From the NCBI GenBank assembly GCA_964291215.2, contig OZ219790.1, forward strand, positions 1,408,001 through 1,472,000: a DNA stretch of 64,000 nucleotides, given 5' to 3'. This document shows, piece after piece, positions 25,221-60,469 of this stretch. The notes under the pieces are model-generated. The model ran no database searches, was not told the DNA's origin, and worked only from the letters and a program-made list of their open reading frames with translations. The translations under genes and the position numbers were made by a program. The DNA comes from Alphaproteobacteria bacterium. GTDB taxonomy: Bacteria; Pseudomonadota; Alphaproteobacteria; MPNO01; UBA830. Numbering within the stretch: the first letter of the stretch is position 1; each line of letters opens with the position of its first letter.

Positions 25221-25298
25221 TGGCGGGAGTGACGGGACTCGAACCCGCGGCCTCTGGCGTGACAGGCCAGCGCTCTAACCAAACTGAGCTACACCCCC
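25221..25298 (-). tRNA. tRNA-Asp (GTC)
   Basis: GGGGGTGTAGCTCAG...CCTGTCACG...GGTTCGAGTCCC...CCA. Confidence 0.96.
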
Positions 25299-34228: not shown

Positions 34229-34304
34229 TGGTGGGCGGTGACGGGATCGAACCGCCGACCTACGCGGTGTAAACGCGTCGCTCTCCCAGCTGAGCTAACC
34301 GCCC
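34229..34304 (-). tRNA. tRNA-Val (TAC)
   Basis: GGGCGGTTAGCTCAG...TTTACAC...GGTTCGATCCC...ACCA. Confidence 0.96.
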
Positions 34305-44674: not shown

Positions 44675-45595
44675 TTACGGATTGCGCCAGCGGCCCCCGC
44701 TCGTGGCGATGATGTTGGCGATCACCCGGTCGATGATCCGGCGCACGGCGCGGGACACGTTGGTTTCGAGGTAGTCGGAAGCGCGGGCAAAGTAAAGCGT
44801 ACGCGATACCCGCGGGCGGGCAATGCGCATGGCCGAGAGCCGACCGGCCTCGGCCAGGGACTGGACCGCGGCGAAAGGCAGGATCGTCGCGCCGATGCCG
44901 CCCTCGACGAGTTCGCGCATCGTCGCAACCGAGTTGATCTCGAGACAGATGTCGAGCGACAGGCCGCGTTCCCGCGCCGCCGTCTCGACGGTCTCGCGGA
45001 GCCCGAACCTGGCCTCGGGGAGGATCAGGCGCTCACGGCTGGCCTCGCTGAGGGACACCACCGCTTCGCGCTCCGGCGCCCGCCCCGGGCGCACGAGATA
45101 GAGGTCCTCGACCAGGAGCGGCTCGGCCACGATGCCGCGAGCGGCCGCGGGATTGTAGGTAAAGCCAATGTCAACCGAGTTCTCGTCCAGCCTCTGCATG
45201 ATCTCCTCGCTCATGCCCTCGACGAGCTTGAGGGCGATTTCGGGATGGGTGGCGCGGCACGCGGAGATCACCGGTGTCGCCAGCAGCGCGGTCGCGGTCG
45301 GCGTGATGCCCAGCGCGATCTCGCCCCGCGGCGGGCCGGAAAGGTCGGTGACCTCGTGGCGCGCGCGCTCGACCTGGCGGATGATGGCGACGGCATGCTT
45401 GAGAAGGAGCTCTCCTGCCTCGGTCGGCTCGACCCCCCGCGAATGCCTGACGAGGAGCAGCGTTCCGAGTTCCTCCTCGAGCTTCTTGACCTGGGCCCCG
45501 AGCGCCGGCTGGGCGACACGCAGCCGGTTCGCAGCGCGGGTGAAGCTGCGGGCCTCGACGATTTCCGCGAAATAGCGAAGCTGGCGGATGTCCAT
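44675..45595 (-). CDS. LysR-family regulator (Nac/TcuR-like)
   Basis: MDIRQLRYF..SFTRAA..VAQPALG..LEEELG..RHSRGV. Confidence 0.93.
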   Translation of the reverse strand: MDIRQLRYFAEIVEARSFTRAANRLRVAQPALGAQVKKLEEELGTLLLVRHSRGVEPTEAGELLLKHAVAIIRQVERARHEVTDLSGPPRGEIALGITPTATALLATPVISACRATHPEIALKLVEGMSEEIMQRLDENSVDIGFTYNPAAARGIVAEPLLVEDLYLVRPGRAPEREAVVSLSEASRERLILPEARFGLRETVETAARERGLSLDICLEINSVATMRELVEGGIGATILPFAAVQSLAEAGRLSAMRIARPRVSRTLYFARASDYLETNVSRAVRRIIDRVIANIIATSGGRWRNP

Positions 45596-45638
45596 CCTTG
45601 TCCTTCCATCGCGATTTGCTATATGTTTCGGCCTCATC

Positions 45639-45653
45639 ATACAAAAACGCTAT
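45639..45653. promoter_or_regulatory. LysR/Nac-type box ATA-N9-TAT between the divergent lysR and MFS genes
   Basis: ATAcaaaaacgcTAT. Confidence 0.5.
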
Positions 45654-46148
45654 CTATCGGCCACCCGGTCGCGGGACGGCGTCCGGACGGCAGCGTTGTC
45701 GGAAACCGGGCGCGGCCGGACGCATGGCGACCGGCCACGGGAATTCCGGCGCTTGTGCGGCCCCGAACCGTGTGCAAGCCTTGATCGCGGGAACCGGTGT
45801 GGGCGGGACGGCAGGAGAGACGGGTCGTGACGAGCAGTTCCGCGCTTTTTCCTGCCGGCGCAGATTTTCAGCGGTGAGCGCTCCCCGCGAGGCGGCCGAC
45901 ATCACGCCATTGAACCGGCTGGCTATCTTCGCGGCCGGCTTCTTCAGTCTGAGCCAGATCCCGATGATGACGCTCATCGTGCCGCTGTGGGCGGCCGACA
46001 TCGGCGCCGGCCCGCTGTGGATCGGAATCGCGGTTTCGCTGCGCGCCGCCCTTGCGATGGTCTTTTCGATCCAGGCCGGCGCGCTGATGGACAGGCTCGG
46101 CACTGCCCGGGTCTGCAGCGTTCTCGGCGTGGCCGCCGCGCTGCTCGC

Positions 46149-47850
46149 GTCGGGTAGGCCGCTGGCGCGCGCATCCTTAGGCGGAGGCTTTATCCGTCAC
46201 CGCTCTTTCGATTGCGGGCGGGTTCGCAGAATCGCCATAGACCACGTTTCCAGCAGCCCCCCTAAAATTCCGTACGTCCGGTTTTCCCGGTTCAAGCATC
46301 AGGCACCCACTTGGAGTTCGGTGCGAAGCCTTCCCACGCCATGGTCAAGGTCGGGTAGGCCACTGGCGCGCGCATCCGTAGGCAGAGGCTTTGTCCGTCA
46401 CCGCTCTTTCGATTGCGGGCGGGGTCGCAGTTCTCCCATAGACCACGTTTCCAGCAGCCCCCCTAAAATTCCGTACGTCCGGTTTTCCCGGTTCAAGCAT
46501 CAGGCACCCACTTGGAGTTCGGTGCGGAGCCTTCCGCCGGACACGCCATGGTCAAGGCTGACCCAACCGTACCCACGGCATCTCCGAGCGTTTGCTCCGT
46601 CCTTCGACCTCGCGGCCTTTGTCGGTCGGTGCCAGTTTCTGAGCACTGGCGTTGACCTACCGCGGAACAGGCCACCTGAGCCCTGAGGTCCTCGCTCAGG
46701 ACGGGTTGTGTTGTCCCGCCCGTCAACGCTTAATCAACCTCATCCGCCAGTCAGGAGGACTCCGCGTCCTTTCCCGTTTCCCGGTTATGGACGCGGTCCT
46801 TGACATTCAAGGGTCACTTCATCCTGTCCGTCCTCCTCACCTTCCGATCTTTCACTGCTGTACTGTCCCGGATTGCCGCCGTCTCTACCACCGGGGAACC
46901 CGATGCGTGCTCTCCAGTTCTTCCGCATCGACGCTGGCCATCGGGCAGTCAGCAGGCCCTTGGCATTCCCGTTTACCCCACTAATCAGCTTCGTGTGGGA
47001 TGGTTATTTCGGGGCTTCATCCAATCGTTCGCTTTCGCTGCGGCCCTCCGGTTTGCTCGCCGCCCTGGCTGACCGAACCGGCTGGACACTGTGTTCCAGC
47101 CAGCCCACAACGGCTTTCTACGTCCCAGCTCGCTGATCCAGGGTCACCCCTGAACCAATGCTACGGCGCCAAACTGGAAATTGCGCCGGCGGGACTCGCA
47201 CCCGCAAGTACAGCATCTAGACTCGCTGCACGCTGACCCAACCATACCCACGGCATCTCCGAGCGTTTGCTCCGTCCTTCGGCCTTGCAGTCTGTCGGTC
47301 TGCGTACCGGCTTGACCTGCCGCATAGGCTACCTGAGCCCTGAGGTCCTCGCTCGGGACGGGTTGTGTTGTCCCGCCCCTTAGGCGACCTCATCCGCCAG
47401 TCAGGAGGACTCCGTGTCCTTTCCCGTCTCCCGGTTATAGACGCGGTCCTTGACGGGTCTCTTCATCCTGTCTGTCCTCCTCACCTTCCGGTCTTTCACT
47501 GCTGATCTGTCCCGAATTGCCGCCGTCTGTACCCCGGGGAACCCGATGCGTGTTCCTCAGTTCTTCCGCATCGACACTGGCCATCGGGTAGCAACCTTGG
47601 CGTTCGCCGTCTATCCCACAATCAGCTTCGTGTGGGTGGGGAATTTCGGGGCTTCCCGTTCGCTTTCGCCCTCCGGTTTGCTCGCCGCCCTGGCTGACCG
47701 GACCGGCTGGACATTGCGTTCCAGCCAGCCCACGACGGCTTTCTACGTCCCAGCTCGCTGATCCAGGGTCGCCCCTGAACCAATGCTACGGCGCCAAACT
47801 GAGAATTGCGGGACTTTCACCCGCAAGATCAGCAGCTAGACTCGCTGCAC
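46149..47850 (-). mobile_element. ORF-less group II intron, outer member of a twintron (46149-46349 plus 47232-47850, 820 nt)
   Basis: The minus strand begins GTGCAGCG and ends CCTACCCGAC. It has a DV/DVI-like gggaaaaccggacgtacggaattttagggggg, a precise insertion with no TSD and no RT ORF. Confidence 0.85.
46350..47231 (-). mobile_element. ORF-less group II intron, inner member of a twintron (882 nt)
   Basis: Same termini as the outer copy and colinear homology with it. It is inserted precisely at atggtcaag|gctgaccc. Confidence 0.87.
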
Positions 47851-48888
47851 GCTCGCCTATCCCCTGTGGCCCTCGATCAGCGGCCTGCTGCTGTTGCAGA
47901 CCCTCCTCGGCTTCCTGCACGTCACGTGCTGGATCGGCGCCCAGGCCATGATCGGCACCCTCGCCGGCGGCAACCCGGGGACCATGGGCCGCTTCACCTT
48001 CGTCACCACGCTCGGCACCTTCCTCGGCCCCCTCCTGGTCGGGCTGGTCTGGGAGTTTCTCGGACCGTGGGGCGCCTTCACGCTAGTGTCAGGCTGGTCG
48101 CTCGCCTTCGCCCTGACCGCAGCCGCGACCCCGCGCGCTGGCGGCGCCGCGTCCCGCGCGTCTGTCCGACCCGCGGACCTGGCCCCGAAATGGGCCGACT
48201 ACGCGGCCGGCTTCGGGCTTCTGCGGTCGCCGATCATCGCCTGCTTCATGGTGATCTCCGCCGCGCTTGCCGCCACCTACGCCATGCGCCACACCTTTCT
48301 TTCGGCCTTTCTCGACGGGATCGCGTTTCAGGGCACCGAGATCGGCATCATCTTCGGCTCAATGGCCCTTTCGGGCGGCATCGCGGGCCTGACAGTCGGC
48401 TATCTGTCGCGTTATGTCCGGCCGCACTGGCTCACGATAGCGGCGACCGTGCTCGGTGCCCTGAGTTTCTCGACCCTGCCCCTGTTTACGGGATTCTGGG
48501 CGCTGCTGGCCGTGTCCCTGGCAACCGGAATCTGCACGGGACTGGCCTTCCCGCTGGTCCTGTCGATCCTGACCCGGGAAATATCCATCGGCGACCAGGG
48601 GCTCAGCGCCGGACTGCGGTCCACGACCAACAGGACGGCATCGCTGACGATTCCGGTGATCATGGGGGCGGTGATCGCCGCCACCGACATAGCGTTTGGT
48701 TTCTTCGTCATGGGCGCCGTCGTCATATGCATCGTCGCGGCGCCGGTGCCGTTTCTCGTGCGCGCGCTCAGGCGCGCGAGCCATTCCTGAGACAGGACGC
48801 GCCGCTGGCGGCAGCACCCGCCGTTGACGTTTCGCCGGCACCCGACTAGCCTTCGGCTATCGCGTTCCAGGCGGCAGGGAGCACGGTC

Positions 48889-49701
48889 ATGAAGCTAAAC
48901 CGCGACCAGATCGACCGGTTCCACGAGACCGGTTATCTGATGCTGCAGAACCTGTTCTCGGAGGCCGAGGCGCAGATCCTCCGCCAGGCAGCTGCCGAGG
49001 TCTACGCCATGGACCGCGAGGAGGTGCTGTGCGAGAGGGACGGCGTGTCGCCGCGCACCGCCTTTGCGGCGCATTGCTACCATGACGCCTTCCGGCGGCT
49101 CGGTCGCCATCCACGCCTGATCGAGCCGGTCATGCAGATCCTCGAAGGGCACGTCTACATGCATCAGTACAAGGTCAACGCCAAGGTGGCTTTCGACGGC
49201 GATGTCTGGCAATGGCACCAGGACTACGGCACTTGGTCGCGCGACGACCTGATGCCTGAAGCGCGGGCAATGAACATCGCGCTGTTCGTCGACGACGTCA
49301 CAGAATTCAACGGCCCCCTGTGGATCATACCAGGCTCGCACCGCGAGGGCGTTTTCGATGCCGGCCACGACCTCAAGACCACCAGCTACCCGCTGTGGAC
49401 GCTGGACAAGGCCACGGTCACCACACTGGCGGAACGGGGCGGCATCTTTTCGGCCAAGGGCAACGCCGGCAGCGTGCTGATGTTCCACAGCAACGTCGTG
49501 CACGCGTCTTCACCCAACCTGTCGCCCTGGGGGCGGACGATCGTCTATCTCTCGCTGTGCCATGTGGACAACCACATCCGGCGCTTCAAGAGGCCGGAAT
49601 GGATCGCGCATCGCGATTTCGCGCCCATCGAGGCGCTTCCGGACGATTGCCTGACCGCGCCGGCACCGACACAAGCGGGGGCAGCGGAACGGGTGGCGTG
49701 A
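48889..49701 (+). CDS. PhyH-family Fe(II)/2-oxoglutarate dioxygenase (ectoine/proline hydroxylase-like)
   Basis: WQWHQDY (HxD), NGPL..IPGSH, FHSNVVHAS. Confidence 0.9.
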   Translation: MKLNRDQIDRFHETGYLMLQNLFSEAEAQILRQAAAEVYAMDREEVLCERDGVSPRTAFAAHCYHDAFRRLGRHPRLIEPVMQILEGHVYMHQYKVNAKVAFDGDVWQWHQDYGTWSRDDLMPEARAMNIALFVDDVTEFNGPLWIIPGSHREGVFDAGHDLKTTSYPLWTLDKATVTTLAERGGIFSAKGNAGSVLMFHSNVVHASSPNLSPWGRTIVYLSLCHVDNHIRRFKRPEWIAHRDFAPIEALPDDCLTAPAPTQAGAAERVA

Positions 49702-60382: not shown

Positions 60383-60469
60383 TGGTGCGGTCGAGAAGAC
60401 TCGAACTTCCACGGGATTTCTCCCACAGCGACCTCAACGCTGCGCGTCTACCAATTCCGCCACGACCGC
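60383..60469 (-). tRNA. tRNA-Leu (GAG)
   Basis: GCGGTCGTGGCGGAATTGGTAGACGC...TTGAGGT..., long variable arm, TTCGAG, CCA. Confidence 0.95.

Follow-up and report, generated by a model that had tools for sequence, protein, structure and literature searches.

The window analysed here, a 64,000-nt stretch of DNA from an alphaproteobacterium, contains an MFS transporter gene split by two homologous units without an encoded protein, one lying inside the other. This arrangement raises the questions of whether the element is a group II twintron, how one copy came to lie within its own kind, and whether either copy could still splice or move. Below, G000 denotes the genome carrying the window and C1 and C2 its contigs; L numbers denote loci elsewhere, and X1–X5 denote sequencing runs.

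Organization of the nested element

The initial annotation described the locus as a complete unit (A′B′) between the two halves (A and B) of a homologous copy, and its coordinates were exact: A occupies 46149-46349 (201 nt), the inner unit 46350-47231 (882 nt), and B 47232-47850 (619 nt). Both units lie on the minus strand, where they start with GTGCAGCGAG and end with CCTACCCGAC as claimed, and their first ten and last ten bases are identical. The rejoined outer unit is 820 nt long and shows 92% identity with the 882-nt inner unit over ungapped columns, in agreement with the claimed nesting of homologous copies. Removal of the inner unit rebuilds its target site, and the same site is uninterrupted in the inner copy, as the initial annotation had also stated. 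The locus is thus a twintron, with a complete intron inserted at a single point of another on the same strand.

On the minus strand, the 5′ part of the outer intron (47232..47850; boundaries, alignment, and fold) contains domains I–III and most of domain IV. It is followed by the complete ORF-less inner intron of 882 nt (46350..47231; boundaries and alignment) and by the 3′ part of the outer intron (46149..46349; boundaries and fold), which contains the end of domain IV, a remnant of domain V, and a long domain VI. The insertion point of the inner unit is inside the predicted domain IV of the outer one. The longest stop-free stretches in the two window units are 113 and 116 aa, no ORF exceeds 116 codons, and the reverse transcriptase (RT) motif is absent from both, as claimed. 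The proposal of a non-autonomous group II family that needs an RT in trans is supported.

Orientation relative to the host gene and the empty allele

The MFS gene lies on the plus strand as a 5′ fragment (45871..46148; start codon not fixed) and a 3′ fragment (47851..48790), both defined by frame and Pfam. The 5′ half matched Pfam MFS_1 with an E-value of 3e-4, below the cut-off, and the 3′ half with an E-value of 1e-12. Removal of the element gives a stop-free MFS frame. However, the twintron is antisense to the gene, because both introns are on the minus strand, and the MFS mRNA cannot be restored by splicing. The restoration of the frame described in the initial annotation therefore holds as a fact about the DNA and not as an outcome of splicing. 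No sigma-70-like promoter was found at window positions 45500-49000, and none of the RNA datasets listed carried the twintron sequence.

The outer unit is flanked by a 6-nt direct repeat, which was considered as a target-site duplication. Runs X2 and X5 contain an empty MFS allele, in which contigs join the two flanks and skip exactly 1702 nt. Both copies of the 6-nt repeat are therefore older than the insertion and part of the gene, which rules out a target-site duplication and confirms that the element has none. Within window positions 46015-48116, runs X1 and X3 also contain a weakly supported joint from 46049 to 48116, with 22 letters on the short side, which possibly represents duplicated halves of MFS genes. 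Elsewhere in the window, three tRNA genes are located on the minus strand (25224-25298, 34232-34304, and 60386-60469).

Group II identity and class

A consensus fold of 14 members obtained with RNAalifold shows six domains (I–VI, named from helix order) and an unpaired or bulged A 7 bases from the 3′ end. Two-sided changes occur in 77 of 241 pairs, compared with 38.8 in shuffles (none of 500 reached 77) and 14–27 in slid controls; this control is lenient because the fold was derived from the alignment on which the pairs were counted. The bulged A of domain VI at −7 and a 3′ AC are present in 13 of the 14 aligned members, and the predicted branch-point A is at 46155 in the outer intron (unpaired in the folds) and 46356 in the inner one, in each case the seventh base from the 3′ end on the minus strand. 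The 5′ end, GUGCAG, is one base off the group II consensus (GUGYG...AY) quoted in PMC3753933.

Comparison with Rfam, which the initial annotation had proposed, gave a divided result. RF00029 matched neither the window copies nor four intact relatives. RF02003, with a cut-off of 49 bits, scored 44.3 bits on the inner copy (E-value 4e-8) and 20.1 bits on the outer copy, both below the cut-off, and 54.8–67.7 bits on all four intact relatives. The ORF-less lineage of this family is thus overlooked by the standard domain V model, and the pipeline of PMC8919778, in the part describing it, relies on RF00029. A six-domain structure is formed by the consensus of the 14 members, but the window units lack a normal domain V. 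The family thus consists of group II introns by descent, whereas the window units themselves are probably not working ribozymes.

The initial annotation also suggested a class E-like 3′ end, and this could not be upheld, since classes E and F are defined by the encoded protein according to the relevant passages of PMC3552965 and PMC3753933, and this lineage has none. Among 59 of the at least 120 loci with this domain V type, namely those with 1500 nt upstream, no RT motif was detected within 1300 nt. The RNA appears to show features published as common to IIE and IIF: alpha-prime in a terminal loop (alpha pairing judged by eye), a 5-nt domain V loop, and a long domain VI. The sections of Nagy et al. 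(2013, PMC3753933) on these classes describe the same features together with EBS1 and EBS2, with the long domain VI as a tendency of F, so that the present family leans to IIF in this respect. It differs from them in lacking a protein and in its length of ~880 nt, against the 450–700 nt quoted there. Bacterial ORF-less introns are described in the corresponding part of a 2015 review (PMC4424553) as rare unless domain V is unusual. A naturally non-canonical domain V was ruled out for this family, since its relatives carry the normal AGC triad.

Exon-binding sites and target choice

Domain I contains two hexamers that change from one insertion site to another; they were assigned as EBS1 and EBS2. 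The loop GCUGAU, initially considered as EBS1, is invariant across targets and was rejected and re-read as alpha-prime. In the inner intron, EBS1 (GCUGAC; 46948..46953, minus strand) forms six of six Watson–Crick pairs with IBS1 at 47232-47237, and EBS2 (AACCAU; 47000..47005, minus strand) pairs at all six positions with IBS2 at 47240-47245. The target so defined (47232..47245, minus strand) is in the predicted domain IV of the outer intron. Since both hexamers pair perfectly with this own-family site, the inner copy likely homed there by design. Its hexamers pair 6 + 6 with the self site versus 4 + 4 with the MFS site, and the one intact outer-type copy pairs 6 + 5 with the MFS site. In G000, the exact target of the inner copy is present seven times, always in family copies, and two of these are occupied. 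Inner copies have one mismatch to their own EBS2, and the occupied sites comprise two of seven perfect and none of six imperfect ones; self-immunity was considered on this basis and set aside, as the numbers are too few and two non-self-targeting copies have the same base.

The outer EBS2 (UCCCCA; 47637..47642, minus strand) pairs at five of six positions with the MFS antisense flank (47860-47864) and at all six with the usual site in an RT-coding intron. The outer EBS1 loop (47587..47598, minus strand) is a remnant, 6 nt short in the alignment with the sister copy G000:C2:152827-153677, and the short form is present in an X1 contig. The match of the outer EBS1 to the MFS gene was read from this sister copy, as the window's own EBS1 is partly deleted; the sister EBS1 pairs 6/6 (one G-U) with 47851-47856. 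The exon-binding sites of each copy thus match its own flank, which supports the claim of two successive target-directed insertions.

Across the family, an EBS table of 63 rows was compiled, from which 15 were dropped (nine G000 copies with deleted EBS1, two diverged fragments, one alignment gap, and three doubtful 5′ ends), leaving 48 rows of 19 types. EBS1 pairs with its own flank at 110 of 114 positions and EBS2 at 105 of 114, compared with 61.5 and 69.3 in shuffles, none of 100,000 of which reached either count; these figures describe rather than test the pairing, because the types are related to one another and the positions were picked by eye on the same data, with the best-pairing of four registers taken for EBS2. 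In the tree, the inner type clusters (98/99) with the three copies directed at the second of the RT-intron sites, a lineage from which it likely arose with both hexamers changed. The family is thus a natural set of 19 EBS1/EBS2 pairs with their targets, including self-targeting at two sites, which makes intron retargeting directly testable.

Copies of the family and their RT-coding hosts

A search of the genome for further copies and a cognate RT intron, as the initial annotation had proposed, showed that G000 contains further copies of the intron, a second twintron, and a family of RT-coding introns, although no intact RT. The ORF-less family is represented by 12 full copies, either uninterrupted or resolved, by one interrupted copy, and by seven fragments. 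Among the 15 copies with a readable EBS region, 10 are inserted in the RT-coding intron (seven at one site and three at another), two in their own family, and three elsewhere. The second self-nested twintron (G000:C2:126933-128654) is itself within an RT-coding intron, resulting in three nesting levels. The inner copies of the two twintrons (the second at G000:C2:127134-128015) are 8 substitutions apart and the outer copies 7. Because each outer copy is closer to uninvaded copies (3–6 substitutions) than to the other outer, the inner insertions of the two twintrons were probably separate events, as judged from these distances; the tree leaves the relation unresolved.

These copies bear on whether the nesting is a product of mis-assembly or of recombination between two copies. 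No contig among those listed bridges the nested junctions (best 8 of 38 pieces in one listing), a third of the genome is repeated (32% of G000 has another copy), and the family copies are mosaic, all of which would fit such an origin. X1 cover is absent at 47235-47300, and the X1 and X3 flank contigs reach only 28–30 nt into the outer ends, below the 31-nt rule. On the other hand, the junctions fall exactly at intron ends, the same 5′ junction occurs at the two twintrons with different flanks, and the inner EBS1 and EBS2 are complementary to the occupied site, unlike those of all other copies. L082 and L023, too, contain self-nested copies whose hexamers match their target, at a different site that lies between domains V and VI. 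We therefore consider an artefactual or recombinational origin of the nesting very improbable and take insertion as its source.

The RT-coding intron family, which may be class E-like, has 49 full-length copies in G000 at the threshold used. None has an intact RT frame, the longest being 386 codons, compared with 493 in the relative L259. Since G000 has no intact RT, the role of this family as the likely RT donor is one that we infer. Most RT-intron copies share common flanks, which suggests a repeated target element. Head-to-tail arrays of the RT-coding intron were also seen at G000:C2:1320039-1324958, C2:1515003-1517960, and C2:151340-157105.

The ORF-less family was not found in the 40 relatives searched. 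A domain V pattern matched 66 loci in 21 other assemblies, mostly full-length introns of ~840–900 nt without an ORF, and a looser pattern matched at least 120 loci from several phyla in the part of the collection covered. Loci L108-L227 show the same domain V type in several phyla with varying domain VI lengths. Twintrons at the V/VI site were found at L020, L026, L029, L050, L079-L082, and L022-L023; one record has them at six places and another at one, and two of them are arranged head to tail. L073:2300-3138 and L033:2288-3138 have larger internal deletions (domain IV and domain II), and the branch position of L033 is G.

Probable loss of parts of domain V and EBS1

The initial annotation noted a DV/DVI-like 3′ region in each unit. 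The region is present, but its domain V lacks 7 nt found in relatives. These bases are missing between 46491 and 46492 in the inner remnant (46464..46495, minus strand) and between 46290 and 46291 in the outer one (46263..46294, minus strand), and comprise, in the inner domain V, two bases of the triad and the 5′ strand of the lower helix. All 13 G000 copies retaining the domain V region lack them as assembled, whereas all 92 matches in other genomes, with overlapping loci counted more than once, keep them. Likewise, the AGC triad and two-base bulge are present in 13 of 13 aligned relatives and in neither window unit nor any of the 13 assembled G000 copies. The shortened junction was not found in the JGI collection. 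As assembled, neither window unit can form a normal domain V, and from the sequence the element is probably a fossil. We consider the loss likely to be real in the DNA.

Nine of ten outer-type copies lack 6 nt of the EBS1 loop, and most of them are located at sites matching the full EBS1. This argues for a loss that followed insertion and spread among resident copies.

If introns with the shortened domain V were still mobile through a trans-acting domain V or an alternative fold, the twintron may have moved as a unit. Rescue by domain V in trans has been achieved in vitro, the same loss is found in all copies across subfamilies ~8% apart, and the two twintrons differ from each other by about as much in their inner as in their outer copies, as such movement would predict. 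However, the remnant folds no better than shuffles (z 0.5), the same loss is found in 31 of the 49 RT-intron copies, no intact RT exists in G000, and the nearest relatives of the outers are uninvaded copies, though not resolved as such by the tree. Continued mobility thus appears extremely doubtful, and insertion followed by inactivation is preferred. The loss in the RT introns starts from the same triad position (e.g., C2:171717-173375) and could be due to chance at such a deletion density; its junction was not found in the genome collection.

Proposed history and comparison with published twintrons

We regard it as probable that two ORF-less introns of one family formed the twintron by two retrohoming events using an RT in trans and were later inactivated by small deletions. 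First, an intron of the outer type, which normally targets a site within the 5′ RNA portion of the RT-coding intron, would have inserted at a similar sequence on the MFS antisense strand and so disrupted the gene. Subsequently, a variant with EBS1 and EBS2 changed to read domain IV of its own family would have entered the outer copy and probably, in a separate event, another family copy. The most likely source of the RT would be the RT-coding introns, an abundant family in which most copies are inserted. Deletions of 6–7 nt would later have taken away parts of domain V and of the outer EBS1 and been passed between resident copies, probably through gene conversion. The spread is placed after insertion because introns without these parts could neither choose matching sites nor reverse-splice. 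The finding is thus a real, well-targeted, probably dead self-nested twintron.

Nesting alone is of a known kind, as self-nested twintrons and ORF-less introns within ORF-less introns have been published (PMC7049729, PMC2882425). In Thermosynechococcus elongatus, the text of Mohr, Ghanem, and Lambowitz (2010, PMC2882425) describes TeI3i inside the ORF-less TeI3h. The TeI3/TeI4 introns resemble the present family in that ORF-less members of EBS-defined families are mobilised in trans and home to domain IV of related introns, including an ORF-less host. According to that description, the ORF-less introns descend from ORF-bearing introns resident in the same genome and insert at the region where the ORF starts. 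In the present case, no member with an ORF was found, the self site is confined to the ORF-less family, the RT introns that act as hosts are of another family, and domain V is shortened. The ‘zombie’ twintron cox1i1149g2 of Lycopodiaceae mitochondria, an intron in itself (Zumkeller et al. 2020, PMC7049729), is likewise reported in the relevant section to be inserted in its own domain IV with a non-functional inner copy. In that twintron, EBS and IBS of the inner copy pair weakly, and the outer intron still splices. The twintron described here differs in the perfect pairing of its inner copy, in the damage to both of its units, and in lying antisense to its host gene.

The nested introns of Methanosarcina acetivorans (Dai and Zimmerly 2003, as summarised in PMC4424553) share repeated site-specific homing into related introns, some of them ORF-less, but to judge from the original title they homed into intron ORFs, whereas the targets here are RNA domains. 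The twintron of Trichodesmium erythraeum, shown to splice in sequence in the pertinent part of Pfreundt and Hess (2015, PMC4649490), is also a bacterial twintron in a protein-coding gene; it is in sense orientation and ORF-bearing, whereas the present one is antisense and the mRNA is not restorable.

Small deletions in repeated DNA

The domain V and EBS1 losses were compared with gaps in other repeats of G000. RT-intron copies have 10–60 gaps each, and 67 of 94 distinct gaps are 5–7 nt long; relative to L259, 1812 gaps were counted in the G000 copies and 4 in the outgroup. Over all repeats, 1908 of 3120 distinct clean gaps are 5–7 nt, with a second rise at 12, and microhomology is found at 76% of the 6–7 nt gaps versus 48% expected. 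High-copy IS families are, like the RT introns, full of 5–7 nt deletions. In PMC6054270, the lengths of deletions in bacterial pseudogenes are described by a power law, with multiples of 3 overrepresented, which would not yield peaks at 5 and 7; the 6-nt-peaked spectrum across the repeats is unlike this pattern. The repeat-wide deletions are the surprising part of the finding and the most worth following.

If the missing domain V bases were an error of assembly or polishing in high-copy repeats, the twintron would be real and catalytically intact. The 7 nt are present in the sole X1 contig listed over the gap in domain V (738.3 of 738.3 depth), as well as in X2 (6730.8 of 6730.8) and, partly, X3, and the short form was not among the contigs listed. 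The density of 6-nt gaps climbs with copy number (0.27 to 3.08 per kb), a trend that an error tied to repeats could produce, and two low-copy IS256 frames (C1:885113 and C2:3220224) are intact at 422 aa. However, three 6-nt deletions within 47523-47697 are reproduced by a 176-nt X1 contig (340x) that differs from the window there by one substituted letter and one gap letter, and a 409x X1 contig carries two more deletions. The single-copy flank depth is 44–49x, and G000 has 9–10 copies of the three deletion junctions. The view that all deletions are assembly errors was dropped because these five, which are deletions other than that in domain V, are present in X1 contigs; as X1 may be the window's own source, this support is independent of the assembly method only.

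The intact domain V may also come from another carrier in X1, because the adjoining 661x contig has letters of L082-type copies that are absent from every G000 copy, and contigs can drop variants. Multicopy RT introns of five other assemblies have two gaps, each of one base, over 54,001 aligned nt; frames of at least 420 codons are open in 66 of 80, a share biased to intact copies since these loci are the best tblastn hits. Error in the missing bases is therefore considered unlikely, and the deletions are likely real in the cell.

As to their cause, one could imagine a repeat-directed, mutagenic host process that cuts 6 (±1) bases from multicopy DNA and spreads the loss, silencing a three-tier system of parasites: RT introns, ORF-less introns for which these are the target, and a variant redirected to its own family. 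By analogy, this would be a deletion-making counterpart of fungal repeat-induced mutation. We offer this only tentatively and hold it to be rather improbable, and the same low standing applies to the reading taken jointly with its corollary that the triad was removed from every ORF-less copy and every RT broken. A dedicated host process rather than neutral decay with conversion is the uncertain step. If the deletions are real and host-driven, they would represent an undescribed bacterial shutdown of a mobile-element burst. Among the titles and opening lines of abstracts surveyed, with few subscription papers covered, no publication on 6–7 nt repeat-wide deletions or family-wide domain V loss was found.

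A cause was sought among several candidates in G000, and none was found. Argonaute Piwi, Ku, and NucS gave no match, and the MutS frame is open. CRISPR arrays at C1:574394-599719 and C2:2068685-2069553 have 96 and 17 repeats, and three RAMP genes follow another cas-like cluster; none of 111 spacers matches elsewhere in G000. No strong 4-mer was present at the deletion sites, where the top enrichments were ~1.3–1.6-fold except for one rare 4-mer. Downstream of the open mutS frame, an RT intron with an ORF-less copy (G000:C2:1638178-1642255) starts ~190 nt past the end of the gene.
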